Below are positions 32,010-57,900 of a DNA stretch of 64,000 nt, one piece after another. The translations under genes and the position numbers were made by a program. Numbering within the stretch: position 1 is the stretch's first letter; each line of letters starts with the position of its first letter. The notes beneath the pieces are model-generated. The model was not told the origin of the DNA. It searched no databases and saw only the letters and a program-made list of their open reading frames with translations. Source of the stretch: Tubulanus polymorphus (taxonomy: Eukaryota; Animalia; Nemertea); assembly GCF_964204645.1 (NCBI RefSeq), contig NC_134026.1, forward strand, positions 12,671,950-12,735,949, in the 5' to 3' direction.

Positions 32010-32054
32010 TACATTCTTTCTTTCAATTACCCAGGCAACACAAATGATACTTAC

Positions 32055-34463: not shown

Positions 34464-35037
34464 GTATTAATCGGATAGAATTGATACGAACTTATTTCCA
34501 CTTTATTCCTATGGAAGACCTCAGACGACATTCGGGATAATTCAATTTCAATTTAATCTTTATTGCACCGTAATATACAAATGACATTATTGGCTTTTTA
34601 CAATAAAGAGGAAAACAAAGAAGAATACATGTATAGTATATATCAAAACCAGATAAAATTTATAGCAGTCTATATACAAACATGATAAGATAGGCAGATA
34701 CACTAGTTTCTCTATACGCAGATACACTAGTTTCTCTATACTTATGACTAGTATTCAATATTCCGAGACGGTTCATATGAGTAGGTTATGTACAAGTAAA
34801 AAATCTGATTCAGTAAACAACGTCATATCATATCATATACATACACATAGCTGAATCTAGCAAGAAGCCTTTATAAATTTCCCAAGGCTATACGCCATCT
34901 GTACCTAGTTGACATAATGGTTCTGAATTTACCCTCACTTGAGGACCTCCTCATTATGAGTTTTCCGGTTTGCTCGGCTACCCGTACTGGCGGGGTAGTC
35001 TAGAGAGGCCAATGAAAACTCCGGTTTGCTGAACCAC

Positions 35038-35226
35038 AGTAATAGGGATAATAGGCTTTCAGATCAAAGGTCGAAGGGTCGAGCTCGTAAAAAAATGAAA
35101 ATAACAATAATTTACAGTTGAATTAGTCGCGCACACTCCTAATTCAACTGTAAATTATTGTTATTTTCATTTTTTACTCACTCGCCCCTTCAACCTTTAA
35201 CCTGAAAGCCTATTATCCATATTACT
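35038..35226. repeat. Terminal fold-back palindrome (arms 35038-35126 and 35139-35226, 12-nt loop)
   Basis: Direct inspection: arms are complementary with scattered mismatches; the inner ~38 bp is perfect. Confidence 0.92.
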
Positions 35227-35781
35227 CTTAAAATATTCATATATATATAACATAATTTACATGAATAACATTTAAATTGACAGATTATTCAATATAAAAG
35301 TGTAAGCTCTTATAGAATAGATATATAGATATATAAATAGTTATTTTATAAATTTATATTCATATGGAAATTGTAATCTCAGTAATAATTTTGAACCTTT
35401 ATTATTCTTTAATTTATTCATATATTCATCATGCAGCTTCATCTCGATTATGGGTACCTGATATCAATGCGGTTGATATAAGCTTAGTTTCAGGGTTGAA
35501 TCGGAATATTATAAACGTTGATATTAATAAACACTCCCAACGAGCATTAGTCGATGCAGGTGCATCAATTTCATGTATTGCTAGATCAACGGTCGAAGGA
35601 TGTATCAAAAATCCCATATATAGTCATTCGGATATAAACATTATTAGAGGAGTTTGTGGGGAAGCACATTCAGTAATTGGTAGAATTGATGTACCCATTT
35701 GCATTCAATCTCATGTATTAACACATAAGTTTTATGTATTCGATAGGCTACATACAGATGTCATTCTAGGACTGGATTTTT

Positions 35782-38700
35782 TTGAAGGAAAACAATGTAA
35801 ACATTGACCTTGCATCAGGCACAATTGAATTTAAAGATGTTTCGATTCCATTAAAGATTCTTAGGAATAAACAAGAGCTGTACAGAAATAAAGCTAAAAC
35901 GATTAACAGCATAGTTATTTCACCAAATACTAAACAAATAGTTCAAATAAGTGTAGATACGTTGGCGGAAGGTTCATTGGTTGTTTTTGAACCATACAAC
36001 CACAAGTTATTGAATAAATGTTTAGGTGGAGGTAAAACATTATGCAAAATCACGGACGGTAAAATTTTCGCTACTATTGTGAATCCTACTAATGAACCGA
36101 TTCAAATTTCAAAAGATTATGTGCTTGGATTTGCATACAATGTAACTGACGATGATTGTTTCGATTTCGCAGATGACAATACTAGTGCAAACATTTTCTC
36201 CGTTGATACTGATATACCACGGAATTATGATGAAAAAATTAAAATAGCGGAAAATTTAGGCATAAAAATTCCAGAAAACTCAGGATTGACTCTGGAACAA
36301 AAAGAGAGATTAATGTATTCAATTGGATGTAATAGGTCAATATTTGCTAGTAACTTACAGGAAATCGGCAAAACTTCATTAGTTACCCATAAGATAGAAA
36401 CAACTGATGACGACCCTATAATTCAAAGACCTTATCGCAAAAGTCCACACTTGAGACAGGTAGAAAACGACTTGGTTAACGAACTGTTAGATGCCGATCT
36501 TATTGAACCAACTGATTCTGTTTTCAATAATCCTGTGGTTTTGGTCAGAAAACCAGACAATACGTATAGGTTTACTATTGATTTTAGAAAACTGAATTCG
36601 AAGACCGTAACGCAATCATTTCCACTACCTCATTTTGATGATGTATTTGACACTATAGCCGATGCTAAACCCATGATATTTAGTAAATTAGATCTTAATT
36701 CAGGATTTCACCAGATACCGTTACATGAAGAATCGCGTCATAAAACAGCTTTTCAAACGACACAAGGCAAAATGTGCTTCAAAAGAATGCCGATGGGAAT
36801 TAAGAATGGTCCTATGGCTTTTCAGATGCTTATGTCAAAATGTTTAGGTCATTTGAATTGGCAATATGTATTGTGTTTCATTGATGATCTAATCATATTC
36901 TCTCAAGATTTTGACAGTCACCTAGTTCATTTATCAAATGTTTTTGAGAAGCTTAAACAAGCCGGTCTAACTGCCAAACCGACTAAGTGTGAATTTGCAG
37001 TCCCAGAAATTGAATATCTGGGTTATACCTTATCTGCTGAGGGTCTTCGTACTTGTAAAAAGAACATCGAAAAGGTTAACAGCTTTCCAGTTCCGTCCAA
37101 TGTCAAACAATTACGAAGTTTTCTAGGGTTGACAAATTTTTACAGGAAATTCATTCAAAATTATGCATCAATAGTTTCTCCCTTGAATGCTTTGAACTGT
37201 AAAGATGTGAAGTTCAAATGGACCCCTGATTGTCAAAAAGCTTTTGATACGCTTAAACAGGAATTAACTAGTGATCCAATTCTGATATTCCCTGATTTCA
37301 ATTCTCGTTTCTATCTCTCAGTTGACTCTTCGGACTATGCTATTGGTTACGTTTTGTCTCAGAAAAAGAATAATTTAGAACATGTTATCGGATATGGTGG
37401 TCGCGCGTTACGTGTAAACGAAAAGAAATGGCATATTAGTGATAAGGAAGGATTAGCTTTGATTGAAGGAATTCAGAATTTTCATCCCTACCTGATTGGA
37501 AATGAATTCACTGTGTATACTGATAGCAAAAGTTTAACGTATATTCATGAAAACCGACTAAACAAACGTATAGGACGTTGGGAATTGGCTCTTCAAGCAT
37601 ATAATTTTTCTGTTGAACACCGACCGGGTAAGAAAAATGGCAATTGCGACGGTTTAAGTAGACGAGATTATGATAAACCTCCTCCTCCTAGACCTGATGA
37701 TCCTTCACAAGAAACTGTTTTCACAGCAATGACAAATGGATCTCAGTCTTATGAAGTCGTGTTTGATTATACTAGCCCCGTGGTGGCTGAGTTAACTCCT
37801 GATACTTATAAGGAGATTGAACTGATTAAACCTGCTAATATAACTCAGTTACAGCGGAATTGCCCTGAAGTTTGTCACATGTTGGAACATAAGTTAGATC
37901 CATCATATGCTGTCAACGATGAAAAACTGTTTCGAAAGCTCAGTTGGAGGGCCGACCAATATGGTATTATCGATGGCACGTTATATTATTTGTATACGCC
38001 TAGAGTTACTGGTATTCCTAAAGCCGAGAAGGTCATCCCAGTTCTTGAAGTTCCTAGGTCATTACGGTCGGAAATATTGAAAGCTTACCATGATTCATTA
38101 TTGTATTGTAACCAGGATCAGACTAATTGGGATACACTAATGCCAAGTGTAATGATGAGTTATAGGCATGTTCCTTCAACTGAAGGTTCAGGTTTTAGCC
38201 CTTACCACATGTCATTTGGTCAAGAAATGCGTCTACCAATAGACACGGCTTTAATTCCACGGCATTCGTTAGCTACTGATCATAAGGCATACTTATCACA
38301 TATATTAAGGCAGCTGGTCATATCACGAAATATCGCTAACGAGAATATTAAAAGAGCTCAAAATAAGTATAAAACTCAGTTCGATAAAAAGGCATTAAAA
38401 CCTCAGTTTCAGATTACTGATCGCGTTTGGCTAAAAGTCATGAAAGTTAAGAAAGGAAAATCACCAAAACTGTGTAAAAAATACGTAGGTCCCTATTTCA
38501 TTCAGTCAATAGCTAGTAAAGGGGCTTATCAATTACGAAGAATCTCTGATAACGTTTTACTCCCATCGCATGTCAATGGGAACCGTCTTAAGTTATACAA
38601 AGATCCCTCATCGCGTCCAAATTATGAAGAGGTCGCATGGGATGGTTCAACAGCTGAGGAAAACCCTGAATTATTCGACGAGATTCATGGGCGCTTAAAA

Positions 38701-39273
38701 TATAAACCTAGCAATTTAGCTGATACTCCAACTGACACTCAAATTTCGGCTGACGATAACAAAGATAGACCGGTAGTTACTGAGACTTTCAATGAATCAG
38801 ATATTCAGAAAATTCTACAGTACAAACTAGAAAGTGGTTTATGTAAATATCGCGTAAAATGGAAGTCAGATTTAAATCGTGGAAATTCTTGGGAATTAGG
38901 AAAATCGATCCCAAATAAACTAATTCGACACTTTCACGAAAACTATGCGGCATCAGGCAAAAAACGTAAGAAACCTTGCAAAAGTAAGTTTTTTGATCGC
39001 ATTACAGACAATTCTGATAATAATCAGGGACATCAAAACGATCGAAATGAAAACGAGAATGACGTAGCGAATATTATAATCACAAATAGAGATAGATGTC
39101 AGGATAGTGAAGTAGAGATACGTGAAAAACCTAGAAGAAAATTAAATGGAACCGTAATACAGGGTGTATATGTTACTAATGATCGCTTCCAGGAATTTGA
39201 TAATCAGATGTCTAATGAAGACTCATCAAATAATGAGAATGTAAATAGTGTATATTGTTCAGCTCGATCGTAA
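35782..39273 (+). CDS. pol: Gypsy Pol: RT (FIDD), RNase H, integrase with deleted core, GPY motif, chromodomain
   Basis: RFTIDFRKLN, LDLNSGFHQI, CFIDDLII, SVDSSDYAIG, YVGPYFI, KILQYK...YRVKWK...NSWE. Separated from the protease ORF by a 7-T frameshift at about 35777-35783. Confidence 0.9.
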   Translation: MKENNVNIDLASGTIEFKDVSIPLKILRNKQELYRNKAKTINSIVISPNTKQIVQISVDTLAEGSLVVFEPYNHKLLNKCLGGGKTLCKITDGKIFATIVNPTNEPIQISKDYVLGFAYNVTDDDCFDFADDNTSANIFSVDTDIPRNYDEKIKIAENLGIKIPENSGLTLEQKERLMYSIGCNRSIFASNLQEIGKTSLVTHKIETTDDDPIIQRPYRKSPHLRQVENDLVNELLDADLIEPTDSVFNNPVVLVRKPDNTYRFTIDFRKLNSKTVTQSFPLPHFDDVFDTIADAKPMIFSKLDLNSGFHQIPLHEESRHKTAFQTTQGKMCFKRMPMGIKNGPMAFQMLMSKCLGHLNWQYVLCFIDDLIIFSQDFDSHLVHLSNVFEKLKQAGLTAKPTKCEFAVPEIEYLGYTLSAEGLRTCKKNIEKVNSFPVPSNVKQLRSFLGLTNFYRKFIQNYASIVSPLNALNCKDVKFKWTPDCQKAFDTLKQELTSDPILIFPDFNSRFYLSVDSSDYAIGYVLSQKKNNLEHVIGYGGRALRVNEKKWHISDKEGLALIEGIQNFHPYLIGNEFTVYTDSKSLTYIHENRLNKRIGRWELALQAYNFSVEHRPGKKNGNCDGLSRRDYDKPPPPRPDDPSQETVFTAMTNGSQSYEVVFDYTSPVVAELTPDTYKEIELIKPANITQLQRNCPEVCHMLEHKLDPSYAVNDEKLFRKLSWRADQYGIIDGTLYYLYTPRVTGIPKAEKVIPVLEVPRSLRSEILKAYHDSLLYCNQDQTNWDTLMPSVMMSYRHVPSTEGSGFSPYHMSFGQEMRLPIDTALIPRHSLATDHKAYLSHILRQLVISRNIANENIKRAQNKYKTQFDKKALKPQFQITDRVWLKVMKVKKGKSPKLCKKYVGPYFIQSIASKGAYQLRRISDNVLLPSHVNGNRLKLYKDPSSRPNYEEVAWDGSTAEENPELFDEIHGRLKYKPSNLADTPTDTQISADDNKDRPVVTETFNESDIQKILQYKLESGLCKYRVKWKSDLNRGNSWELGKSIPNKLIRHFHENYAASGKKRKKPCKSKFFDRITDNSDNNQGHQNDRNENENDVANIIITNRDRCQDSEVEIREKPRRKLNGTVIQGVYVTNDRFQEFDNQMSNEDSSNNENVNSVYCSARS

Positions 39274-40668
39274 ACTCACCAAGATCATACGAATCAGGAT
39301 AGCGTTAAGAGTAGTTCAGATTCAAGTAATCGAAGAAGCTATCGAAGAAGCTATTCGGACGGGAAATCGTCGAGCATTATGTCCGTGCCCTACAGGAAAA
39401 ACGGTTGTTGCTACCAAATTTCAAAATAATGTGCTATTCGTAAAATATTACCATGACAGTCCATGGTACCGGGCATCAAAACGAGATTGGTTTGAAGTAA
39501 GTGATTACGGAGAGAGTCTTGAACATGTATGGGGTATATATCATGTCATCTTGGAAAATGAAAGGCCTCCCACCGAAACCGAGCTCAAAAACATTATACC
39601 TACTGCCGCTCGAGCCGTATCAACACGTTTCAACGACCAGGGAGTCTTAGAATACTATGTTTTATTTGGGCGGTTCGCTCCCCCTGCATGGCGGCCTTGG
39701 TATGAAACACCTCCTGGCACACAAAGTCAGTACGCTTCTCGTTTAAAATCTATTTCTTCGAAACTCAGTAGTAGCTACAGTAGGTTTTCTTAAGCTTTCC
39801 AGGATATCATATGGATATCAACGATGAATTGATCAGCTTATTACTCGTACGTATATTTTCAGTTTATTTACGCCCTGAACGGTTCAAAGATCGGATAGTT
39901 CATACGTTCAATTAATATATACTAGTCATTTTAAGTAGAGTGCATGAAATCTTTCGTAGAAAACACGCAAATAACGTCATTGTAAATCTAATACGAGACA
40001 TAACTGAGATGAGTGTACGGTACGGTATGAATTTATCAATGATATAATATAACGTGGATTAATTGAGACTGCGATGATAGGTGTTAAAACAGTTCAGTTA
40101 TGCTGGTGGTGTCATCTTTGCTCAATTACTATGGTTATTCTTTATTTACTTCTGACCACTTATTTTGGATGATGATAATTTTTTCCTTTTGGCTGATAAA
40201 GGTAACTGTATTTGTGTTGTGTCATTGCCTGAACTCTGCTCTGATGTCAAATGTTGCATGTTACTATCATTGTGTCACGAAGTTATTTCCAGTCAGTAAT
40301 CGAAAGATCTTCAAAACAGAGAAATGCGTACTACTTGCAACTTGCATCACCAACTGATCTTCGGGACGCTATAACAACACAACACGTCGCTACTTCTGTT
40401 CGTCGCAGAACCAACCAGAATTCGGGGATCGTTTGCAGATCATTCAAAATTACAGTTAACGTATCATCGCATCGTCCGTATATAACGACAACATGTGACT
40501 CTTTCGTGAATGACTGATAATCCGGATGTTACTGTCCAGCGTTTGCACATTTTTGCGCGGTGAAAGTCAATCTTTCATGTTTTCGCGATGGAAGGAGTTT
40601 TGATGAACTTATAGTATCTGCGTTTTCCGCAAATTTGGAGGACCAAATTTAATTGGACAAGGGGCATC

Positions 40669-40762
40669 TGTCACCCTGATATAATTTGCATATTTCATTA
40701 TCATATAGATCTACAATGTCATATCGAACAGTTCATAACATTTCATAGCTCTACTACATATT

Positions 40763-40805
<43 letters not shown>

Positions 40806-41187
40806 TAATATAACTTATGACTATAGTGTCAATATGTGCTTTAAGGTCGTAATCAACATGTGACATTACTCAACATGTTTTCACGATAATTAGCTATAGT
40901 CAGTGCTCATCGATAATTAATTAATGTCTCTCAAACATGTCGCTAGGTGTTTATTTGTGCGTCCTGATGTCTACAACTTGTCTGACACCTAGTTCTCACA
41001 TTATACTCATGATTCTGTATATAAAGACTATGTAAAGCTATGATAATCATTCTCATTCCGGGATGCAATAAAGATTGTACATATAAGGTTTAACTGCCTT
41101 GTTGTTCCTGATGGATGGAATCCTGTACCGCTGGTGTAAATGCTAGTTCCCCAGCCAGCCTGCCGATACAACAACCAGCCGGTTACA
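40669..41187 (+). repeat. Gypsy 3' LTR containing an (AAT)n microsatellite
   Basis: TG...CA ends with a 7-bp imperfect inverted repeat, preceded by a PPT; AATAAA near 41067; (AAT)n at about 40765-40812. Confidence 0.85.
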
Positions 41188-42196
41188 CTTTTTCTATTTT
41201 GTATTCTATTTCATCTGGATTTGGTACAAGTGATAATTCTTGTTCATAGAAATAACCTAATATTTCTTCATCTTTTAGATCTTCTAATTTATAAACAAAA
41301 GGTTTAGTTAATATTATCTTTTTAATCTTGAATATTTCTTCAGTAAAATTTGGGGTATAACCTTTGTAAAAGGTTTTTCTATATTTAGATATTCTAACGT
41401 GTTGTCCTATTTTAAATTTAGGTTCTCCGAAATCATGTGTAACAAATGCTCCATACAGATTATTCCAAACTATTTCCGAATTATCTTCTTTTCTAGCTTG
41501 TATAGGTTTCATATTTATAGAACTATGTTTAGAATTATTATAACCTTTCACTAAATCATCTAATACATCGATATATTTATATGTTTCATTAGCAGTAAAG
41601 TATTTCCACATTCTAGTTTTCAATGTTTTATTAAATCTTTCTATAATAGATGCTTTTTTATCTGAGTGTGTTGAAAAATAGTCTACATCGTTATCAGATA
41701 ATAGTTTTTTAAAATGTTTGTTATAAAATTCCTTACCTTCATCAAATTGTATCTTATCTGGAATAGCTTCTTTAAAGTTAGATTTAAAAGAATTTGTCAC
41801 TTCTATACCAGTTTTAGTTTTGATTGGAATTGACCAGGCGTATCGACTGAATATGTCTATAACATTTAATATCCAGAAATATCCTTTGTTGTATTCTTCT
41901 AAGTTCTTCATGTCAATTAAATCTGCTTGCCATTGTTGATCGATATATGAAACCATAACTTTTCTTGTTAAATAAGTTTTATCCATTTTCTTGTAGTTTT
42001 GATATGTTGGTTGATTTTGTAACCATGATTTCAATTCACTATATTTTATATTACCATGTGGGTGCCGTACGGCACCATTTTCATTATCAGATTTAATTTT
42101 ATTCCATAATTCTGAAACGTTAGAATATGATACTTCACTTGGATACTAATCATGGATTATTATTTGAATCAATATCAGATAAAGTCTGTGATTCAT
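41188..42196 (-). pseudogene. Polinton retroviral-like (rve) integrase, chromodomain cut off by the Gypsy LTR
   Basis: DDE motifs QWQADLIDM, IQFDEGKEF, IIERFNKTLK. The ORF ends at YKIEK|V* exactly at the LTR boundary. Confidence 0.92.
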
Positions 42197-42305
42197 TTAT
42201 ATCAGTTAATTTCTTTTCTTAGCTTTTTTTAATTCTGAAGATCTTTTACCTAATTCTCTTGCCCATTTAATTTGTTTCATGGATCTAGCCTTTTTCTTAA
42301 CGCTA

Positions 42306-42909
42306 TCACTCATTTATTTTAGTTAATTTTTGTTCTGATTCATTTTCTGTTTCGATGTTTGGTTGTAGTACATCTGTTTCGTTCTTACCTGATTTATATT
42401 CCATAGGCTTGATGTTCGAAAATGTTATGACACCAGTAGAAATTAATGTCATAACCGATCCTAATTGAAATGAAGCATAACCAACCCATCTTTGTAATTC
42501 AGTCATAACTAAGTAGTCATTTTTCAAATCACTATATAATTTATTTTCATCATCAATTGGTATTAACTGGTTACATAATTTTGAATAACATTTGACAATA
42601 CCATCTGAAATAGAATCATTTATTCTAGCTAATCTAGCTTCTTCATAAATCTTAAAATATTTTATTACTTTATCTGGTTTCATAGCATCTAATTCTTGAA
42701 AAGTAATAGTCTTAGTTAAAAACTCTCTACACTTTCCGCTAGCAATCAATAGTTCTAGATGATGCTTACAATATAAATAGTATTCCTAATCTATATTGTT
42801 CTTAACTTAAAATGGAATTAGAAACAACTGGATCCTTATTATCACTGATACCTAAATCATCTAATGTTTTTTCAATATCAATACTATTCTTACTCGATTT
42901 CTTTGACAT
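42306..42909 (-). pseudogene. Polinton hypothetical protein, 5' part disrupted
   Basis: ORF 42306-42749 plus an upstream TAAATG start at 42909 with stops in between. Confidence 0.55.
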
Positions 42910-44056
42910 TTATATTAGAGAAATTTAATAAGAAAAATATTATAAGTATTATAAAATGATACTAGATAGTTAAAATTAAAGAATTCTAGTATTGACTACT
43001 GATACTAGCTATTTGAATTTAAAGAATTTCTATTTGAATCTATTCAAAATATAAAGTATTCTCTTTTTGAAAAGAAAATATTAAAAATATAATAGAATTC
43101 ACTAGCTAGTTGAAGTTATTGTTTTTTAAATATTTTTTATTTAAAATAGGATTTAATATCTCACTACTATTGTTTATCTATAGGAGCAGTAATCATAAAT
43201 GTCCAGATAAGTCATTTCGGATTCTCGATAATAAATCCTAAAACTGAAAATAAATTCAAAGAAACGACTGGTGGAAATACTATTTCATAAACACACATAT
43301 ATTTCATTCTACAATCATTATCGATTTCCACATTCCAAGCCGCTCCACTCAGGCCCGGTAAGTTATGCGTGGAATGCAGGAATCAATAAAGTATAATACA
43401 ACATCTGTCACTGTGTGTCATTAACAACAGCTTAATGACGCAATTGAAATTCCGACAAACGTAATGCATTGAAAGCCTATACAGTATGGCAAACGACTAC
43501 AGTCTCATGAGTTGAAATATCCTTTATTTCTGATTCCACGTCCATCTATCTTCACTTTCTTGATTCAATGGTCTTCATTTTGTTATCTAAAAGATAAATA
43601 TCTAGCGTAGAATAAAACTAACTTGAAGTTGTAGTTGTAAAATATTAATTACAACACTTAAACATGACCATTTGTGGCGCATCTTACCAGGATAAGTTTT
43701 ACATGTTTAACGTTTCCCGACGCCTTAATAACAACAAAAACAGTACTTACATTTATAACTGTAAACTCCTAAAATTGTGTTTATAGAGAGGATATCCTAT
43801 TCGTTCCTATGCTTATGTGCTGCGCGTTTATAGCTGCCAGTTATTCACTAGCTAAACACTGTCTGTGCAACAGATGTTCCTTTGTAATGTAATTGATTAA
43901 TCCTTTTCAACTGAAATAGCACATTCGATCAATATTCAAATGAGGTACACCCTATTCAACTGAATATAACGTGCGACAGATGCTTTTGTAAACAACCTAA
44001 TACAATTACATACAGGTGGTTTGACATAGATCGAGAGTAACCGGTTTTCTAAGCGC

Positions 44057-44710
44057 TTAAGCTTCAACGTATTTTTCATTATGTGTTGAGTTCCATAATT
44101 CAACAAATGTCTTTGCTTTATCCAGTTGATCTAAATATAACTGTAAATCTAGTTTATTAGATTTAATTATGTTTTCCTTCTTTTCTAAAGGCCTTAAATT
44201 TTTCCAACTCCAAATAAGTTTTTTATTGTATTCATCATTCATGTTAAATTTAGATATTGGTACCACATGATCAATATGGTAATAATCCCCATAATTATCT
44301 ATATTCATTTTATCATCGAATTGATATATTATCCATGATATGAAAAATTCATCTGAACAACCCAATAAATTAGATAGTGTTTCTGAATGTGTTTCTTTGT
44401 TGAATAATTGTGTTAATCTAGATCTTAAGCATTGTTTCAATCTAAAATTAAGATCTGTTTGATATCTTTCTCTCATATATTCTGTCATATAATCATTATA
44501 AGCCTCTCTATTATCTTCTCTGTATTGTTTGGTATATAGTTTAAAACAAGTTTTACAGCAATATTGAAAACCATCTTTGCTAATCTTACGCTTACTAAAT
44601 TCTGTTAAAGCTAATTTATCTAATTCACATTTAGAACACTTCTTGTAATATATATTTATAACACCAGTGTTATTTGTAATATTTATAGTTTGTGGTTGTT
44701 CTGGTTCCAT
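44057..44710 (-). CDS. HNH endonuclease with N-terminal zinc ribbon (CxxC...CxxC), apparently intact
   Basis: KKCSKC, CCKTC, YHIDHVVPIS, WKNLRPL..KENIIKSNK. Confidence 0.85.
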   Translation of the reverse strand: MEPEQPQTINITNNTGVINIYYKKCSKCELDKLALTEFSKRKISKDGFQYCCKTCFKLYTKQYREDNREAYNDYMTEYMRERYQTDLNFRLKQCLRSRLTQLFNKETHSETLSNLLGCSDEFFISWIIYQFDDKMNIDNYGDYYHIDHVVPISKFNMNDEYNKKLIWSWKNLRPLEKKENIIKSNKLDLQLYLDQLDKAKTFVELWNSTHNEKYVEA

Positions 44711-44727
44711 TTATTATACATATTTTT

Positions 44728-45669
44728 TTATACTAAAATGATTTTAGTAAAAAATATACCTATATTTAAAATATACCTATGTATTAGATACCCAGGATTA
44801 TAATAATTATCAACATTTATTGCGCCATTAGTATATGTTGCAATGGTAAAAAATATTAATATACCTTTAATAGATCTTCTTGGGAAGTTAATATTCTCAT
44901 TAATTATTTCATCATTTGCATTAATAGTTACAGTTTTAAATTTATCAATATAATCATATAATAATGAAAATCCTTGATTGTATTGAGTTTGAATTATACT
45001 TGAAATATTTTCATCAGTTACTGTATCATATTCTAAACATATATTCGATAATTTATAACTCATATCTTTATTAACGCTAGATATTACAATTTCATTAACA
45101 GGAGCAAATGTTATTTCGAATATAACATCTTCTTGAATTGCGTATTTATATAAAGGTGCATTATTATTTATCAATTCAAAGTCTAATGGAATTTTATATT
45201 TGCTTCCATATATACTTTTTATCAATTTATCTATAGAATTAGTTAATATTGCATTATGTGCTTCTGATCTTAATTTATTTTGGTTTTCTGATTGGATGCC
45301 TTGAAATATCATATTATTTCTATTTTCTTCAGTTAACCATAAATCTTTATAATGCATAAATAAATTATAATCATCTAATGAGAAAACTGTTTCTGGACCA
45401 ATCTTTATTGTTAATTTTTTAATCAAATATCTTCCAACATTATCAACAACATAATTATTATTATAACCGATTACTTTTATATCGGCTGATAAATAAATAC
45501 TATTTGGAACATAAAAAGTATTTTGTGTTAATCGAGGAATTCTAACATATAAAGTTTCATCGGGATTAATATTAGAAGGGTTATGAGTAATTATATGATG
45601 TGATCTTTCTGCTTTAATAGCATTAGATATTCTATGATTCTTAGAAGGATTGATATAACTCCCACTCAT
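44728..45669 (-). pseudogene. Major capsid protein (double jelly-roll), C-terminally truncated
   Basis: THNPSNINPDETLYVRIP, DNVGRYLIKKL, YKIPLDF, YKLSNICLEYD and NINFPRRSIKGILI resemble Polinton MCPs (recognised by eye). Similarity seems to end after YYNP. Confidence 0.75.
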
Positions 45670-45699
45670 TTATTCAACAAAAAAATTAATTATTTATTT

Positions 45700-47147
45700 T
45701 TTATCATGTTTACTAACCCAAAAATAATAGCACTTACAACTGTAATTTAAAATAAAATAATATGTTCAGCAGCAAAGTTAATAATGTTTCCTGCAGATTT
45801 CAATATAAAACCAACAATTGATGCAATAACTGCTGGCAATGCTGCAGCAGATTTTTTAGATAGTTCCCATGAATATTTTGCTAATTTCTTTAAACCATCC
45901 TTAACTTTATCTTGTATAGAATTATTATCATTCGGGGGATTATCTGGTTTATTTGGAGTAGGAGTAGATTTCAGTGAATTTGATATAGCTAAACCTATTG
46001 TTGTAAATAACATAGTTACAGCTGTTAGAATTGAAAGAATTGTTATTCCTTCTAATTTGAATAACAATTTTATTCTATCTTTTAATGATATTTTAGAATC
46101 TGGTTTTATCAACAAATCTTTAAAAATAACTTTTAATCTATTAATATTAAAATCATATGATTTCAATAATGATTTAATTTCTTCTTTTTGTACTTCTAAA
46201 TTATCTTTTAAATTATTAATTTCTTTTTCTAAACGTAATTCTTTTTTCCTATATTCTATTTCATCAATTACTTGACGATCAAGATCAGACTTTAATTGTT
46301 CTATTTCTTTATTTTTATCAGTTAATTCTTTTTCTAAATTTCTAATTTCAATATCTCTTATACTTTTATCATGCGCAATTTTATCAGATGCATGTCTTAT
46401 ACTTTCAATTTCTCTAATTACATCAACAGAAAATATATTATTTAAATCTTCTAATTCTTGATCTGTTGCATCAAGTAATCCATTTGGTAAAAGTTTTTCA
46501 GTTTGAACTTCTCTTGAATTAGGTTTACTAGTTTTGGAATTAATAACTTCTTTAGGAATTTTTTTGGTCTTAAATTTTCATTAATTATCTTCAAAAAATA
46601 ATCATTTCTTTTTTTAAATTCTCTTATATTATCATCTCTTTCTTCTTGTGTAACATCAGTTATAACATCATTAATGATTTTCTTAATTCTATCTGGTTTT
46701 AATAAATTAAAAGTTGATTGTTTTATTATTTTATCGTTACTTTTAAGATTTGAAATCTTAAAATAATAGTCATCTTTCAAATGCCAATAATAATCACCAT
46801 TTGAATATTTTAAACCTTCTACTAAATAATCCATACCTTTATTTGTTATATTGAAACCAGATCTTTTTAACATTGGTTTAAAATCGTCTTTTAAATTTTC
46901 ATACTTTAATTTTTTTTTCTAATTCTGGTACTTCATTTTGAATATATATTCTCGATTTAGCTCCTCTAATATATTCATCTGTTGATGGGGCTTTAGAACC
47001 AGGAACAACTTCTGGTAAATTAGTATTATATTCTATTTTATTATCATTACTAAAACTTGGTTCACTAAAATCAGGTGGTTGTTCATCACTTATACCAGGT
47101 TCATCTAAAGGACCCAATGGAAAATCTTCTACACCTTCTACATCCAT
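45700..47147 (-). pseudogene. Frameshifted coiled-coil protein with C-terminal hydrophobic helices
   Basis: ORF pieces 46899-47147, 46451-46873 and 45747-46166, with a single promoter-like motif at 47147. Confidence 0.55.
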
Positions 47148-47162
47148 TTACATAATAAAAAA

Positions 47163-48482
47163 TTAAAATTTAAAATATAATATTCCTCCGATTACAATTC
47201 CTATAAAAGTTATAGCTAATTTAGTATTTTCCTGGGATTTATTATCATCATTTAGTTTAATTATATCATGTTGAATAATATCAGCTTTTATATCTTCTGA
47301 TGTATTGTAATCTTTTATTTTAGAATCATTATTTAATTTAATATTATTAGTTTTAGTTTCGGTTGATTGAATGTGTTTTTTATTTTTTTCACCTTCCATT
47401 AATTTTGGAGCAGTAATAATCTTTTTATTTATATCATTTAATCCAAATGAATTATTTATTGTTGCAGTTTTAATTAGATTATTATAACCAATTATGCTTC
47501 CCATCTTTAATACTAAATCAATAGAAATAATTAATAGATTAGGGCCTATACAATAATTTAATCTAATATGTGATTTATCTAAATAATTTTGATATCTTAC
47601 AATGTTTTCTGGAATCGATCTATTTTTATCATAATGAATTGAATCTTCAAATAATACTTTGAATTGTTTCTGCGCATCGAATGAAGTGTTATCATTTCCA
47701 ATTATTGGGGATCTTGTTTCAACTTACGCACCTAAAGTACATATCAAATAAGTTCTAATAGATTGATTTATTCTTTGTATACCAGCTTTAGTAAAACCTT
47801 CACTATTTTCTAAAATGAAATTAACCCAACCATTATTATTTTGTTGTTGTATATTATTTTAATATTTTGGTAATTCATTCCAATTTAGTGTTCTTATATC
47901 TGAATTTGTCATTATTTTTCCAAATTCTTTAGTATATAATATTCCTAATCCACCCATTGTTCCAATTTTTGCTCTAAAATCTTTATTTGAATTAATATTA
48001 AATTCATTACATATTTTATAAAACTTAGAAAAATTAATATTATTATTCAATTCTTTAAAATATTTTGAACCTGGTAAAGGACATTCTATTTCATCTAATA
48101 TTAATTTTATTTGAAAATAAGTATGAAATCTAAAAAGTGATAACATCAATGGTAAACTTGGTTTATTCAAATGATCATTCCAACTAATTCCACATCCTGT
48201 TGTTGCGCAATAAACAGCAAAATTTAATTGGTTCTGCCAATACTTCATATTAGATTTTAATAACCATTGTTTTGCCTCATTTAAATTTTTAAAATTAATT
48301 GTATACACATGAAATATATTTTCCATCTTTACATGAAAATTATTACTTTCAGTAACATAAATATATAAATCAATTAATGAATTTAAAACTTCATTTCTAT
48401 ATGTAATATCCCTATTAAAATCTATTGTTGGAATATTATATTTAATTGATTTATTATATTGGGAAGCTTTTGGAAACCCCAT
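47163..48482 (-). pseudogene. Polinton conserved protein (WQNQLNFAVYCATTGCGIS) with C-terminal TM helix, broken by stops
   Basis: ORFs 47859-48482 and 47163-47504 with coding-like sequence between them. Confidence 0.6.
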
Positions 48483-48545
48483 TTATATAATTAAAAAATT
48501 AATAATTAACTAATTCTTTTAATAATTTATCTTGTTCTTCAACTG

Positions 48546-48914
48546 TTATATGACCATTATATAATCTAGTGTATTCTTTAATTTATTAATTTCTTTTATA
48601 TTAGTTTTCATTTTTTCTTTATTACTTTTTATATTTAATTTTGAACTTATACCAGTTAAAACACTTGAACTTAATCCTAGTACGCCAATTGATATAGCTA
48701 AAGGTGTTAATGGACTGAATATTGCTAGAAATGTTATTACAGAACTAATTGTAACCGAACCACTTATGATCAAATAATATATAATTTTACTTTTTAAATA
48801 TTTTTTCTTTTTTATCTTTAAGTCACTTTCAAATTCTAATATTTGTTTTTCTAAATATATTTTTAATTTAGTTTTATTTATATCATGAGGAATAATATCA
48901 ATATTATCATCCAT
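48546..48914 (-). CDS. Small two-TM-helix membrane protein
   Basis: Two hydrophobic stretches flanked by Lys-rich coiled coil; TAAATG start. Confidence 0.6.
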   Translation of the reverse strand: MDDNIDIIPHDINKTKLKIYLEKQILEFESDLKIKKKKYLKSKIIYYLIISGSVTISSVITFLAIFSPLTPLAISIGVLGLSSSVLTGISSKLNIKSNKEKMKTNIKEINKLKNTLDYIMVI

Positions 48915-48933
48915 TTATTTAGCAAAAAAATTA

Positions 48934-49354
48934 CTAATTAGTAAACTTATAATCAACAAATATAACAATAACAGTTCCGCCTAAAATCCAAATTATTTCA
49001 TATTTCTTCTGTTCATTACTTGGGGTATAATAATCTGATAATTTAGGTTTACATAGATGTAATTTTTTTTTATTTGTTACTGCGTTATATAAACTCATTG
49101 CATCATCAACTGATTGAAAATCTATGTGAAATCTTCTGATCATATAATTCCTTGTTAATATAATCCATATAGTTTTGTCTCTTTTCTCTATATTCTTCTG
49201 CTGCTTTATTGTATTTCTCTAATGCTAAGTTATGTCTTTTTTGTTCTGTTAATGATCCATTTTTATCAATATGTTTAAATAAATAACCGCCACCAGTAAA
49301 TGCTAAAGCGTTAACAATTGCCGATCCTATAATAGTTATAACTGCAGAAGCCAT
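48934..49354 (-). pseudogene. Small membrane/coiled-coil protein, frameshifted
   Basis: MASAVITIIGSAIVNALAFTGGGYLF...EQKRHNLALEK, continuing in ORF 48934-49143 to a C-terminal TM helix. Confidence 0.6.
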
Positions 49355-49378
49355 TTATTTAGTAAAATAATTATGCAT

Positions 49379-49600
49379 TTATATGGGAGGAATATATTTT
49401 TGTTTTTCTAAATAATCAATAGTTAAATTAGATAAAGTAACTGCTAATGTTAATTTTAAAATATCATTGATATCAAATCTATCAACATTAACACTTCCCA
49501 TTTTAAATACTTTTTTTAATACCATTGAATAACCAACAGTTCCAACTGATAGTAATGCTCCATTATATAATCCAGTTATTATCCACTTATTATCACTCAT
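49379..49600 (-). CDS. 73-aa hydrophobic Polinton protein
   Basis: Complete ORF with two hydrophobic helices and the shared upstream motif. Confidence 0.65.
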   Translation of the reverse strand: MSDNKWIITGLYNGALLSVGTVGYSMVLKKVFKMGSVNVDRFDINDILKLTLAVTLSNLTIDYLEKQKYIPPI

Positions 49601-49957
49601 TTATTTATCAAAAAAATTACTATCATCAAAATATTTAGTTATCTGATTTATGATTAATTCAACATTTATTTCATTACTAGTTTCATTTGTATATATTTCA
49701 ATTATTATTTTTTTAATATCATCGATGATAAAATCTTCATCTAATTCATAAAATCTTAAAGATTCTGTAATTAAATTAGTAATCTTTTCTACATTTAAAG
49801 TTTCTTTATCTATTGTTGTTTCATACTCAAATGTTGTTTCATTAGAAAATGTTATATTTTTGATATGTGTAATTACATCATTAACGTTAAATTTCATTTC
49901 TTTCTCACGTTTAAAATCAAATCCAAAACATATGCTCGGCCCAACAGTTATATTCAT
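49601..49957 (-). CDS. Acidic hypothetical Polinton protein (118 aa)
   Basis: Complete ORF; its stop abuts the next ATG; shared upstream motif. Confidence 0.6.
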   Translation of the reverse strand: MNITVGPSICFGFDFKREKEMKFNVNDVITHIKNITFSNETTFEYETTIDKETLNVEKITNLITESLRFYELDEDFIIDDIKKIIIEIYTNETSNEINVELIINQITKYFDDSNFFDK

Positions 49958-49973
49958 TTATATAATGAAAAAA

Positions 49974-50732
49974 TTACTCTCTACATCTTATAACTAATTC
50001 ATAAATTACAGGAAAGTTATTCAAATCAATTAAATATCCATTGTGATTTCTTATTTCTAATTTAAAATTATTAAATTGAGGAATACAGGGTTTAAAAACA
50101 CATTCTGTTAAATTATAATTTATTTGAGTTCCAAATTGTTTAACATTTTTTAGCGGTAAAATATTTAGTATACTAGAACTACAAATTGTTTCTTTAGTTG
50201 CTTCGAAAGTTTTTGTAGGCTCGATTAAATTGCAATAGATATAAAAGTGTGTAAAAGGTATTATATTTGAATTACCATCTACGTTTCCTGTAACGGTATC
50301 TGGTACAATTCCTAACAGTTTAGCTATAGGTTTTTTTACCATAAATGCATGTTGACTTTCATCTTATACCTTTATTTTAATTTTATTTGTGCTATCACTT
50401 TTTATAAATCTAATTAAAAATTTATCATCTCTTCTAATTTTCAACCGTGCTCTACGATTAATTTCTTGAGCTAATGTTTCTAAATTATATAATCCTGGTT
50501 TTAAAATTAGATGAAACCATTTATCTACATTTCTAATATGAAATAAAACAGTATTATCTTCAATAGTTTTATCCGATATATTATAAAAAGAATAACATAA
50601 ACTTATATTAACTAATTTTAAATCTACACAATTCTTAAATTCTCTATCTAATTGTACTAGTAAATTATGAGATTTATAATTTGTAAGTCTTCTAGAATCA
50701 ACAAATATTCTGTATTCTTTTAATTCTACCAT
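49974..50732 (-). pseudogene. Minor capsid protein (penton, single jelly-roll) with one in-frame stop
   Basis: IFVDSR, SFYNIS, KPGLYN, YIYCNLI, LEIRNHNGYLIDLN..P. The two ORFs are in frame across the TAA at 50364-50366. Confidence 0.75.
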
Positions 50733-50749
50733 TTATTTTACATATTTTC

Positions 50750-51103
50750 TTATTCGAAATCTATTTCATGGTGCCCCTTTTCATTCTTACCTTTGTATAC
50801 GAAATAGAAATCTCCAGAACATAATTCTTCTAGATCTTCACTTGATAATCTATGAAATCTATCTGGTAAATATGTTCTGAATTTATATGTATTTCCTTTT
50901 AATCCTTCATATTCTAAGTGTATAACTAATTTATCTCCATATTTGTTAGTAACTGTATCAATATTTGTAATTAGATATTTCTTATGGATTATTAATTCTT
51001 TTAACTTCTTAAATTTATAATCTACTGATTTGACATTTGAAGTATCTTTTATTCTATCTAGAAATGATTTGTTGTTCTCACTGTGTGTTTGTTTACTCTC
51101 CAT
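50750..51103 (-). CDS. Hypothetical 117-aa Polinton protein (beta-rich, TNKYG motif)
   Basis: Complete ORF directly downstream of pPolB. Confidence 0.6.
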   Translation of the reverse strand: MESKQTHSENNKSFLDRIKDTSNVKSVDYKFKKLKELIIHKKYLITNIDTVTNKYGDKLVIHLEYEGLKGNTYKFRTYLPDRFHRLSSEDLEELCSGDFYFVYKGKNEKGHHEIDFE

Positions 51104-51132
51104 TTTAATAACATATTTTTATTAAAATTTGA

Positions 51133-54100
51133 TTAACACGTTAGAATTCTTTTCATTATCTCGTTCTCTTTTGTTTCTTCTCTTTTAAATTTTAAGTATT
51201 CATCTAAATTACAACCATAAGCAACTGTATGAATTCCATCATCCAGAATATATCTTTTATCATCAAATGGGTTTAGACTTATCTTCTCTATTTCTTCAAT
51301 AAACATTTCATGATCTTCAGATCTTAAACATCTCATTTTATGTTTTCTAACTTCTTCATTGAATATACAATTGATGTAATCTTTGAAATGAATATTCTCC
51401 TCTACTACACTTTTGGTTATTCCTTTTAACTTTTTAGCTTCATGTTCTTTAGTTTTATATGAATACATTTTAGTTCTAATACCGATGAACTCTATCATTT
51501 CTTCACCACCTAATTCATCCTTAAACTTCCGTGGAACTTTTTTATTATCATTGCTAAACAATTCATGATCTTTAGGATAATTACTGAAATCAAAATGATG
51601 TTTTAATGTTTTTAAATCATCAGTTATGTTATCAGTTTTTATCTTTAATATGTAAGAATCTGTATCAAAATATAGTATTTCTATATGTTTTTCTCCAAAA
51701 AGTGGTTGTAATACATTATAATAGAATTCATACATTAGTAATTTTGATAATTCTAAAACTGATGCTCCAACATAGATTGGTTTATTAAATTTCATTGATG
51801 TTCTTCTCATCTTAACTGCAGCTAAATTTTCATCAAATATTCTGTTACCTAAAAACTTAGAATATGATTGTAAATGTCTAATTCTTTTACCATTACTAAC
51901 TTACTCAATATCATTTCTATTTCTAATATTTTCACAAGTCTTACCATAGAATGCATTGTTCATTAACTTGAAGAAATCTTTTTCGAAATCAGTTTTAGCT
52001 TCAGTTCTCTGTTTGGTGTTGAAATCTATATATTTTTCTAACCACTTAGATTGACTAAATGAAATATATCTATGAGTTACCATTAACTTTTCTGTATGAA
52101 TATGATTTTCAGGTTTAATTCTTTTTTGGTAATTTGATAATTCTTCATGAGTTACAGTTTTATGTTCGGGACAGTAAGCTATATTTCTAGATTTAAATTT
52201 TTTATCTTCAGGATATTCTAAATCTACAACAAAAAAGTAACCAGTATCTGAATCATCTGCAATATCTAGAATTCTTTTCTTCCAATCAAATTTATCATTA
52301 TTTTCATTCTGTAAAACTTCAGTTAATTCAAATACTCCATAAGGTTGTGGTTCCATCATTGCCCAACCATACAAATTATTTGCATCTATATATAATAACT
52401 TATATCCGGGGTTATCATTTACATCGAAATATCTATCCCCTAATACACCTGAAACTCCTCATCTTATAGATTTTTCAAATAATAATAATTGATCTATATT
52501 TGTTAACAAATCCATTTTTATATCTGTAAATTTTAAACCACAATCCCATGTTAAACCAGGTGATGAATAACAATGACATGGATCAATATTGAAATATTTT
52601 AGGTTTACATCTCTAAACCTTTCGAATATATCGGTTAATAATAATACATCTGATTTTAAATATAAATCTACTAATTGTCCATGATTTTCTATTTTGAAAT
52701 GATTCCAAATATTCAATGTTCTATTATATACTTCATCTTTAATATATTCATTTTTTAATTCATCATAGAATTGTTCTTTCAATAATTCAGTTATGTTAAA
52801 ATCATTATGATTTTTATAGAAAGAATATGGAATTGCGCCTTTATATCTCATTAATTGGAAATCATCATTATTTGGGTAGTGTTGCTTTAATATTTTTAAT
52901 TCATCATCAACTAATGATTTTGATAAGTTATCTAATGAACTATTTAAAAATCTATATGAATCTATAAATCTTAGGCAACCAAATTGGAATGATATATAAT
53001 TCTCAGATGTTTTAGCTAACATTCTAAATTTATAAGTTGGTATTTTATCTTTTGATCTATTTGAATTTAATCTTTCTATTTCATTATTAATTTCTTCTAT
53101 TTTATGACATAACTGTTTGATGAATAAATGTGCATCATATCCTGATAGATTATGAAATATAACTGGTACAAAATTAATTTTCTTAGCTTGTAAGTTACAA
53201 TTCTCATGTGCAGCGCCTCTAAACTTTCCGTTCAAATGATCATGGTCTCTTACTTTTTTATCTTTATAATTAAATATCTTTTCACAATAATAACATTTAT
53301 CTGCAGACGCAAATTCTTCTTTATCTTCTTCTGTCATTATAATTTCTATATCTGTATTCAATAATTTACTAAATCTTATTTCATATTCAATTAATAAGTC
53401 ACAAAAATGATTGATAACATTTTCATTTCTATAATTATAATATTCACTTTCAATTAGTTCTGGATAATCAGATTTAATATATAACCCGAAAGCAGCAGCT
53501 GATTGATGAATCTTTTTAATAGTATTTGTTATTGGCGGTTCATCTGAAAAATCATTTTCATTAGAATTTAATTTCTTTCTTTTATAATATATTTCTTTTC
53601 TATCTTGATCAGTTAATTCTTTATTTAATGATTCAAAATCTCCATATATTACAAATGGTACTTTATTTTTGTAATCATATTTTTTGAATTCTTATATTTT
53701 ATCCTTTTCATTTGGTAAAACTAATTAACAATAATCATGATTTTCACATAATTGTTTATGATTTAATAATGTACTTTCATTGCTGAATTTATGTAAACAT
53801 TTTCTACATAGATATATTTTATTATGGTGATCATTTTCTGTTCTAAAGAATAAATCTATTTGTTTAATCCACATATAATGATTCTCATAATATAGTATAT
53901 CTATAACATCATTTGAATCATAATCTTTTGATAGATATAAAGGTTCTAATGTATAATGTTTATGTTGTTACCTTTTGTATTTGGTAATTTGATTAAATCA
54001 AATACATTTATCTTTATATTATTATCTCTCACTATTTTTGGGATGTTTTTAATTATAACAGGATACTTATCTATCTTATAATTATTTTCAAATGGTTTAT

Positions 54101-54972
54101 GATGAGTTAATCTACAAATATTATAAGTTGCAGGATGTAAACAACTTATTATAGCCCATAGAAAACATTTATCATCTTCATTTTGTACATTTATTACAGC
54201 ATTAGTTTTAAATGGTAGTTTAATATAACTCGATGCTTCAATATCTGGTTCTTTATAATATGATACATTATTTTCATCAATTGGTTTTGATTTAGTTAAC
54301 TTATTATATTTTGTGTTATAAACATGTAAAGTCATAAATATTATTTCATCAAATATTAAACCAGATCCTTCAAAATATTTCTCTTCTATTTTAGTTTTTA
54401 CTTCATTATAACATTTATCTAATTTATCATCTATATGTTGTTTAGATATAATATGTTGTGAATGAGAATTTATATTATGTATTGGTTTATCTTCAGATTT
54501 TATGAATTTAACTTTAGAAGATATACTTATTTTAGGATATTCAACATCAGTAATTATTTTTATTATTTCTTTCATATTTTCTAAATGTTTTTTATTTTCT
54601 TCTAATGTTTTTCCTTTATGAAATTTAAACTCGATAGCTGCTGGACCAATATCACTTTATCACGGTTATCTCTATATCTTTTTTATTATCTAATGAATTA
54701 ATATATTTTCTTACATCTTCCATGTATGGTCTTTTATTGTTTAATTTATTTTTTATGCTTTTAATTGTCTTCTGTTTCTTATCATTATCTTTATCAAAAT
54801 AATCTTCACCTAAAATATCATTATTCTTATTTCTAATATGACTTTTAGATTTTAAATGTTCTTTATAATATCTTTTATCACTGAATGATTAATTACATGT
54901 ATCACATTTGTATGTTTCTTTTTCATTCTTTAATTCATCTAATTTAGTTTCTAATATATCATCTTCATACAT
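51133..54972 (-). pseudogene. Protein-primed family B DNA polymerase (pPolB) with N-terminal zinc finger, cysteine-protease-like motif and endonuclease VII insert
   Basis: YIDANNLYGWAM, KLMNNAFYGK, YFDTDS; exonuclease FHNLSGYD and YLKSDV; CYYC...DHDHLNGKFRGAAHENCN; NEDDKCFLWA...ENHYMWIK. In-frame stops at 52459 and 51901, plus frameshifts. Confidence 0.93.
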
Positions 54973-57900
54973 CGACCTTTGATCTGAAAGCCTATTATCC
55001 CTATTACTAACCACCCCTCTTTGCAGGGATGCGGTATGATGTTTGATCTGACAGTTTCAAGTGGTTAATGGCTGATTCAAGTGCTTACAACGATGCTTAT
55101 TACTTCGTGGTACATGGTGGTTTAAAAAAAGATTTCATAATAATACGCTCACCGCGTGGGCTTCGTAGAGAGACCACTACCTGTGACCTTCCCAAATTTT
55201 AATTGTCCTGTCCGATTTGGTTTCATCCAATTGAGAGACTGCCTTTTCACGTTAGGGCATTTTTGGATCACGTCACTCCAGGAAATGGCTTTTGTGCCCC
55301 TTCGTCGGTTCCACATGTTTCATTTGAGCTATAGACCACAATGGTGACACCATGATGGTCAGTAACTGACCAATTGATATATCCCCGAGTCTGAACACTT
55401 GACTTCGAATTTCGGAAATTTATCATGTAATGTTTGTTTTCAAACAACTAAGGAATCATCATTGCAAATTCATCACTGACCATCACTGACCACCACTGAC
55501 CAATTGAAACTTCTTGAAAGAACGATATACCGGTACCGCATTTGGTGTGAAACTAGAAAGGATTCGCCATTAAAATTCATAAATTGACCATCACTGACCA
55601 CCACTGCCCAAGTGAAACTTCTCAAATATCGTGGTCGAATTCGAAAGTGCTTGTCGTCGTATTGCTATTTCTAGAAACCAGCAGAAAGTTTTTCAACTGT
55701 TTTTGAATGGCGTTGACATGATGGAAATTTATTACCCATAAATGGGTTACACATCTGGATCGCAGCACCTCACTTGCCGCAGTGCGTTATTTTCACTGCA
55801 TAGTAATGCTAATACATAAACTTTTTTACTACTTGACTCGTATCATCTGAACAGTACTGCGTTTGAAAACTCAACGAATAGAAAATGTTTGCGGGAAGCG
55901 CCTACAAATAAGTTATAATAAGATTAATTAATCGATGCATGAAAAACAATTAAATCACAAGGTGACTAACACCCGTCTTTTAACCAATCTGTGCGATACC
56001 AATTAATTAAATCATTAAACGCATTGGGTTCCTAATATTTGAAATCATGTGATACAATAGTTGTTCTTTAGACTTGGCCACTTTCATTTCAGACAACCGC
56101 GTACTAGACCAGTGGTCACCGAGGCATTAACCATACCTTCAAGTTTTGAAAATTCGATGGTAACGCGGATTCTTCGCCTCTAAAAACTGTTTCGTTAATA
56201 GTTTTCTTTATATGAAAAGTGTTCATAGGAATTGAAATTTGGAGTGATATCAGTTACAGCTGTAACCCTTTATCATTGTCAGTTCTTTTTTGGAATTCTA
56301 GTAGATTAGTGAAAATATCAATGATGAAGTTCACTTATTATATCAAGTACCGTTTTTACTGTCGCATGCGAGTCGAAACAAAAATATCTATCCAACTGCA
56401 TATCTTCGGGTATAAACTGTGATATCCTTCAGTATGTTATGAATATCTTTAAAAATTTGTGTTCTAGTATAATACCCGAAGGTTAAACTATCGGACACAT
56501 AAAAGATTCGCCATAATCAAAGTTTTTAAGAAAATCTTTCTTCGAGAAAGAAAGATCTTTAAAAGAAGGATTGGCGTCAAACTAATCCATAATGGACTGT
56601 TGTGAATTTATTGAATAATCCACCTGAGAAATTTCGGTACTCGAAAAACGCCTATTCATATAAATCAAAAATGCATGAATAACTTGACGTTATTTGCGGG
56701 TCTCATGAAACACTTTCGTGCGCTCTTTTTAAATCTAAAATAGCATAAATACATGCGTGTTTCGTTATAAACAAGGTTAAATTCCAAACGCACATGAAAT
56801 ATGGAGCCTGTATCACACGATATACACATCTTGAATTTTCTCTAACTACCTCGGCCTTTTCCAATTGGGAATGGTTCAGTTTTTTAACGGCCGACATTCA
56901 GAGGCACCTAAAAAACCGGTTGTATAGCACTTGAGATTTTCAGTGTAGGGCACATCTCACATCGACTCGGCTCGCGGTCGGTGGTTTAATGGGAACACAT
57001 CTGGTTGCTACTAGTTTAACAGTTGACGAATTCAGAAAACTTTTTTCAAATGTCTTTGATAACTTTTTAAACATAGTATTCTTCTTAATTACATTTCGCT
57101 GATTCCATAGATATTTTTTCATGAAAATTGCTCCAGTTATAACGGATTTAAACATACATGTAAAATGATTATTTTCAAAATATTCAATTTTCTCCGATTT
57201 TGAAGAAATTCTGACACAATATCATCTCCACTCGACACATGATTTTACTTCGGCGCCTTTGAAGGGAGTGTCACTTGTTGTTGAGTTCATATTTAGTCAA
57301 ACAAGAAGATATGCCTGATTCCTTTTTAGAATTTAGATTTCAACGGATATCATCAAATTACTAGAAAGGGACAGCAGCTTTCGGTCATCCGCAAAAAATA
57401 CCTAAAATGCTCTCCTAGGGTTATGGAAAAACATGTCACGAAACATACGGAAAATCCTTTGTTTGGTAGACTGAAATTATTGAACTCTTAAATAGCAACA
57501 TTCAGAGAAACAAAAACATAAGAATATATTCTCGCCCACCCTTTAAAAAAACAACGTGATTTCAATTGAAGATGACACGTAGCCTCATATCAAATGATAT
57601 AAACGCATCAGAGCCTATATATTCATTCTCTTTACGAGGATGGGTCTCCACATTCATAGGATACGATACGAGATTCGTGGGTACGAATGATGAATACAAC
57701 TGATAAAGCGCCAATTTCACTGATTCTTGCACATAAAGGTGTTTTAGAGTAATCTAGTTAACAGGTGTGTTTTAGGAGTATTTTGAATTTAAATTCAAAA
57801 CGGGGTTCATGACGAATATTGAGCATTCTAGGGCTGGAGCAAGAAACGTGTGGGATCGTCCGCCAATGGTATCGTCAAAGAAATAATAAGGAGCCAGTCC

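Follow-up and report, generated by a model that had tools for sequence, protein, structure and literature searches.

The window analysed here, a 64,000-nucleotide stretch of the Tubulanus polymorphus genome (contig NC_134026.1, positions 12,671,950 to 12,735,949), contains a decayed Polinton/Maverick element of 78% A+T, in which gene starts are preceded by a common promoter-like sequence. The hallmarks of the group are present, i.e. protein-primed DNA polymerase B (pPolB), integrase, major capsid protein, penton, packaging ATPase, and inverted repeats with AG..CT ends flanked by a 6-bp duplication (Table 1). Most genes of this copy are broken, and the packaging ATPase, which is intact in relatives, is left as a remnant beyond an inserted Gypsy element. 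The penton was recognised from the fold of a structure model of the orthologue in the related locus L005 (pLDDT 64.5). At the right end the 37-nt repeat directly adjoins polymerase-related sequence, which suggests that this end of the element was deleted in part; no TAAATG start was found for the pPolB gene, whose 5′ end has probably been deleted. A cysteine maturation protease, a gene of most group 1 Polintons, was not recognised in the window or in the scanned relatives, the former carrying deletions and the latter being fragments.

Read depth, in 12% of one whole-genome run, was about 300–1200 over positions 41000–46300 and 40–240 from there up to 47100, and most reads over 41000–47100 were 90–99% alike. 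The element is therefore a member of a multicopy, diverged family. The window copy itself is a broken relic, and any reading of lifestyle applies to the family and not to this locus. Within the element, about 1 kb without open reading frames (ORFs) or protein matches (43050–44056) had a read depth near that of the Polinton genes and is either a non-coding part of the Polinton family or a nested repeat.

Table 1. Polinton features and promoter-like start signals, in window coordinates.
Feature	Position	Strand	Basis
Decayed Polinton/Maverick, AG..CT ends	35038..55008	-	flanking 6-bp target duplication AACCAC (35032-35037, 55009-55014)
Left terminal inverted repeat, 189-nt imperfect palindrome	35038..35226	.	
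Right terminal inverted repeat, 37 nt matching left end	54972..55008	.	
Protein-primed DNA polymerase B, stops and frameshifts	51133..54970	-	PF03175 E 3e-7
117-aa gene, A-rich core, AAAATG start (L005 orthologue: TAAATG)	50750..51103	-	
Penton (minor capsid) gene, broken	49974..50732	-	L005 orthologue fold resembles mavirus penton, E 5e-8
Double jelly-roll major capsid protein, about 293/415 residues remain	44794..45669	-	relatives' models, E 3e-16
Retroviral-type integrase, broken, 3′ end cut off	41159..42139	-	PF00665 E 7.5e-9
Ty3/Gypsy-type retrotransposon sequence inserted in Polinton (ends approximate)	35461..41158	+	
A32-like packaging ATPase, C-terminal remnant	35344..35460	-	relative matches PF04665
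A-rich core and TAAATG signal, penton gene	50730..50750	-	sequence
T-tract and TAAATG signal, start 49957 (gene 49601-49957)	49955..49975	-	sequence
T-tract and TAAATG signal, start 49600 (gene 49379-49600, conserved small protein)	49598..49618	-	
T-tract and TAAATG signal, start 49354 (gene 48934-49354, conserved, frameshifted)	49352..49372	-	
T-tract and TAAATG signal, start 48914 (gene 48546-48914, with a weak, sub-threshold match to a SLATT-like two-helix domain)	48912..48932	-	
T-tract and TAAATG signal, start 48482 (gene to 47163, conserved, broken)	48480..48500	-	
T-tract and TAAATG signal, spacer 1 nt shorter, start 47147 (gene to about 45696, coiled-coil, broken)	47145..47164	-	
T-tract and TAAATG signal, major capsid gene	45667..45687	-	
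A-rich core and TAAATG signal, endonuclease VII/HNH-like gene 44057-44710	44708..44728	-	
TAAATG signal, start 42909 (conserved gene to 42306, broken)	42907..42927	-	homology to relatives
A-rich core and TAAATG signal, start 42313 (conserved small gene, broken)	42311..42331	-	homology

According to the original prediction, seven consecutive genes of the element share a promoter motif at fixed spacing, and every site agreed with this when checked. The start codons at 49957, 49600, 49354, 48914, 48482, 47147 and 45669 on the minus strand all read TAAATG (7/7), and an AATT(T/A)TTT tract begins 18 nt upstream of each ATG, except at 47147, where the distance is 17 nt; the genes are consecutive once two broken genes are recognised. 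Further TAAATG starts are at 50732, 44710, 42909 and 42313, mostly with A-rich cores and the last two placed via homology to relatives, while the start at 51103 reads AAAATG instead. TAA is directly upstream of 11 of the 12 window starts, as against 19/315 of the remaining minus-strand ATGs (Fisher p 6e-12). None of these 315 carries the full motif, and neither does any of the 1710 ATGs in the host flanks. In Markov shuffles (orders 1–4, 300 each) it occurred 0.02–0.04 times on average and at most once, against seven observed, so that the expected enrichment over both AT-rich background and internal ATGs was borne out. The pattern was derived from the same seven sites, and these window statistics thus flatter the motif; its independent test is in the relatives. 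At 49600 the motif does lie within the upstream ORF in the window, but this coding overlap was rejected as proof of selection, because the L005 orthologues have no overlap: there the upstream ORF terminates 19 nt ahead of the next ATG.

Alignment of capsid sequences returned 37 loci, from which L036 (a 27-residue match) was excluded, and a tree was made of the 24 capsids of at least 300 residues. The window and 14 loci formed one capsid clade, here clade A, with support of 100/98; L016 and L025 were joined to it by identity, and short distant loci were likewise grouped by identity. With the automatic gene set, TAA was directly before 59 of 71 starts and 91 of 2303 other ATGs in clade A, before 2/110 starts and 49/2862 other ATGs in the distant group, and before none of six starts in the sister lineage. 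Independence is overstated by these counts, as the loci share ancestry and two pairs (L001/L002, L011/L012) are nearly identical. Three of the 12 exceptions in clade A read TAAATA or TAAAT-ATG, and several others are internal ATGs in broken genes. The motif is independent of GC content, since it is present in the clade members L006–L008 (GC 0.36–0.44; 9/11 starts with TAA) and nearly absent in the AT-rich outsider L017 (GC 0.26; 1/9). The TAAATG signal is thus restricted to one capsid clade of Polintons.

The window capsid groups with animal Polinton-type loci; in comparisons with the modelled capsids of relatives, mavirus was a weaker fold match than the iridovirus and PBCV-1 capsids. Capsid searches of viral contigs returned no relative, and neither did the kinase alignment. 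A deoxynucleoside kinase (PF01712), unusual for the group, is encoded in two clade-A Polintons (L005 10343–10981 and L007 2898–3377), and a look-up of this gene gave no donor. Polinton capsid relatives were also found in records labelled Bartonella and archaeal bin (P0053, P0055, L037), which are probably eukaryotic contamination.

Over 26 orthologous pairs in 11 gene groups (ungapped; integrase, endonuclease and the 51103 gene excluded), sequence identity was 0.78 in the core (-18..-12), 0.46 in the spacer (-11..-7), 1.0 in the TAA (-3..-1), and 0.37 further upstream, compared with 0.38–0.53 at fourfold sites of the capsid gene. Because the core and TAA are kept while the spacer and synonymous sites are saturated, the motif is, as judged by sequence conservation, a selected signal consisting of core, spacer and initiator. 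Position -12 is a T in 51/56 clade promoters and position -13 in 44/56, and TAAAT was locked to the ATG in 55/67 clade starts. Whether the core is T-rich or A-rich follows the orthologous groups (permutation p 2e-4; 28 promoters, 11 groups), although this could be explained by shared descent too. In 16/60 cases the TAAATG start lies head to head with a divergently oriented gene, in many of them 19–30 nt away and with the motif on both strands. Near-palindromic bidirectional promoters of 24–30 nt were located in L009 (370–399), L010 (2017–2046), L011 (242–267) and L013 (788–819), where the T-tract of one strand is the A-tract of the other.

The layout is close to that of vaccinia promoters. In the vaccinia late consensus TAAAT is followed by G over the start codon, and the 10th base upstream is a conserved T, whereas the upstream part of poxvirus intermediate promoters is A-rich (PMC11980589). 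Both Polinton cores, T-rich and A-rich, fit these published descriptions well at the sequence level, with a T peak 9–10 bases upstream of TAAAT, one base off the vaccinia wording and closer to the start; the Polinton core is also the tighter one. The likeness to vaccinia late promoters proposed originally therefore stands for the layout, but weight matrices did not favour poxviruses. In a panel of eleven chordopoxvirus loci (Pox_Rif), in which the region holds mostly intermediate genes, TAA preceded 71/130 unique starts; two late groups with TAAATG had T at -13 in 8/10. Of 15 profile correlations tested, the highest (r 0.62) was with poxvirus shifted by one base, and distant loci with iridovirus-type capsid reached 0.56–0.59. 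TAAAT was locked to the ATG in 68/121 poxvirus and 93/282 iridovirus-like starts, and in this respect the clade is most poxvirus-like.

A set of iridovirus-like loci, which we take to be invertebrate iridoviruses, shares TAA before the start codon (96/294 starts), in the form (T/A)AATAAATG. Strict AA at -5/-4 was found in 91/96 of these, in contrast to 24/56 in the Polintons, and a T peak at -12 was absent (42/96 against 51/56). The capsid of these loci is closest to PDB 6ojn/8hif, and the more distant loci with iridovirus-type capsid had TAA at 127/630 starts. TAAATG is hence common to poxvirus and iridovirus-like starts, and the comparison did not single out one helper type. In the iridovirus-like genomes themselves (L162–L199, L205), a (T/A)AATAAA element is at or just before many start codons; no description of it was present in the available parts of the review literature examined, and it may be an undescribed late promoter.

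Taken together, we put at roughly two in three (0.68) the probability that the T-tract, spacer and TAAATG form a late-type promoter used by a helper nucleocytovirus through its RNA polymerase, with the family being integrated virophage-like parasites. The element would be silent in the host chromosome until helper infection, upon which late factors of the helper would bind the core at -18..-12 and transcription would begin within TAAAT. Slippage would add a 5′ poly(A) leader, by which a near-leaderless mRNA could be translated as in vaccinia, the late transcripts of which start inside TAAAT with such a leader (PMC12722222). The element would then copy itself with its own polymerase and package itself with its own capsid, penton and ATPase, and the A-rich core (penton, ATPase) may mark an earlier promoter class. 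Among the scanned proteins (window and 27 clade-A proteins) there was no RNA polymerase or transcription factor. In these terms the proposed transcription by a nucleocytovirus polymerase retains a selected, fixed-spacing signal that fits a poxvirus post-replicative promoter, although the motif is not specific to poxviruses; likewise, an integrated hyperparasite is likely for the Polinton family, but not for the window locus, where the copy is broken.

As for the helper, a poxvirus-type virus best fits the ATG-locked initiator and takes the larger part of this probability, albeit short of an even chance on its own. An iridovirus-like helper is the alternative, held at perhaps one chance in four or slightly above, and is favoured slightly by the provirus being nuclear, since iridoviruses have a nuclear phase. 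A more specific version is tentative and somewhat unlikely: that the clade, widespread and integrated in animal chromosomes, consists of obligate virophages of an undiscovered poxvirus-type lineage, using intermediate- and late-type promoters, and that their multicopy proviruses are an inducible antiviral reserve. The idea of an antiviral benefit is speculative and borrowed from the case of mavirus.

Several points weigh against helper-read transcription or against a poxvirus as the helper. Neither transcript ends nor a helper genome were seen; no RNA run was listed as containing the element, which does not bear on its expression. The relatives are contig fragments, a complete genome of which may encode its own factor. 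T at -12 is far more frequent in the Polinton core than in chordopoxvirus cores (51/56 vs 31/71), and the poxvirus matrix was best for 16/56 clade and 2/11 window promoters, in a panel of mostly intermediate-class genes. No protein or gene link of clade A to poxvirus loci was found, and the kinase matches iridovirus-like loci weakly (27–32%). The described poxvirus hosts are insects and vertebrates (PMC12447285), and for other animal Polintons there is transcription or virion formation with no nucleocytovirus known to act as helper (PMC8502044). The sequence TTTTTNT was depleted in the coding strands of clade A (16 vs 47.5; 0/100 shuffles as low) and not in the distant clade (18 vs 19.8), and together with runs of at least six T it was depleted 3–4 fold against codon shuffles in the clade-A coding strands. 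As proof of a poxvirus helper this was rejected: the depletion is mostly of long T runs and extends to runs of A, and TTTTTNT is not avoided in the late genes of poxviruses.

The most serious competitor, which we regard as improbable, is that the host reads the motif, either as a compact RNA polymerase II core element or as a translation signal in RNA (a U-rich tract at fixed distance from the AUG), so that the element is an autonomous nuclear virus. The fixed spacing is compatible with an RNA signal too, 44 of 60 starts have a Kozak-like G at +4, and other animal Polintons are transcribed in host tissue (PMC8502044). Yet T is at -3 in 57/67 clade-A starts, where the distant clade instead has A (44/82). 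T at -3 is disfavoured in eukaryotic initiation, and is poor for a eukaryotic start unless a slipped poly(A) leader replaces the context. In addition, a TATA-like element adjoining the ATG would put transcript starts inside the gene, and head-to-head genes 19–30 nt apart leave no space for ordinary polymerase II promoters and leaders. Still less probable, at about one in ten, is a nucleocytovirus-type polymerase without a free helper, supplied by some copies of the family, by an endogenous giant virus, or by a cytoplasmic linear plasmid. Yeast virus-like elements are a precedent for the last, having a poxvirus-related polymerase, promoters and poly(A) leaders (PMC12722222), whereas no polymerase subunit or late factor was found in the window or the 27 clade-A proteins, and a genome of 15–20 kb is too small for a multisubunit enzyme.

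That the motif is a by-product of compact packing, its TAA serving as stop codon of the preceding gene or belonging to an AATAAA poly(A) signal accompanied by a U-rich enhancer, is very unlikely. AATAAA does overlap the start in 25 of 60 cases, and stop and start abut at 49600; on the other hand, 35/60 starts have no AATAAA, 16/60 have no upstream gene on the same strand, and the stop abuts the start in one of 38 same-strand cases. Stop–start coupling and poly(A) signals are excluded because divergent gene pairs carry the motif on both strands. Chance has practically no weight left, despite the very AT-rich element (78% A+T), being refuted by the counts at non-start ATGs and in shuffles, by the clade-restricted counts, and by the conservation between orthologues.

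Among known systems, the animal Mavericks/Polintons (adintoviruses, PMC8502044) share pPolB, the rve integrase, double jelly-roll capsid, penton, A32-like ATPase, inverted repeats, 6-bp duplication and animal host; clade A differs in its TAAATG signal and in that no cysteine protease was recognised. The words "promoter" and "helper" do not occur in the available text of that paper. Mavirus with CroV, Sputnik with mimivirus, and Gezel-14T with PgV are small integrating dsDNA viruses with genes under the promoter motif of their large helper, silent until helper infection (PMC6428243), and the appeal to promoter sharing between mavirus and CroV as a precedent is supported by this source. These infect protists, use Mimiviridae-type motifs and have known helpers on which their dependence was tested; in the present case the carrier is an animal Polinton and the motif, TAAATG, was recognised from sequence. 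Closer in host are the Polinton-like viruses (PLVs) found in entomopoxvirus occlusion bodies (Barth et al. 2024, PMC11296320), which are Polinton-related and have been suggested to be hyperparasites of poxviruses in animals. That suggestion draws on co-occurrence and on shared genes; no rve integrase was detected in the two pPolB-bearing members, whereas the clade-A Polintons carry an integrase. "Promoter", "motif" and "transcription" are absent from the available main text of PMC11296320, and "promoter" from the available text of the preprints 10.64898/2026.06.19.733378 and 10.64898/2026.10.13.758929, in both instances supplements excluded. In the literature searched, the coverage of which leaves out most subscription papers, no report of TAAATG promoters in Polintons was found.

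Elsewhere in the window, 32023–33420 was identified as the initial coding exon of a CNNM metal transporter gene of the host, with an Ig-like N-terminal domain; it lies 1.6 kb from the element and is in favour of an animal host. A repeat of 1.1–1.2 kb with internal units of about 154 nt is present in three copies of 94–95% identity (4901–6107, 7205–8324 and 23661–24870), and a second Gypsy remnant is at 62557–63421.

These findings bear on gene expression in animal Polintons, and on the question of whether such elements are autonomous or dependent on a helper. Sharing of helper promoters in protist virophages and poxvirus-associated elements in insects are already known, so that the principle has precedents; what appears to be new is promoter evidence from an integrase-bearing clade of animal Polintons. 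A clade-specific, selected promoter of nucleocytovirus type would be a sequence marker dividing Polintons by lifestyle, and would indicate that a single branch switched to dependence on a helper. With a poxvirus-like helper, an unknown virus lineage is predicted, and the motif would then be a footprint by which poxvirus-type viruses may be predicted in hosts where none are known.

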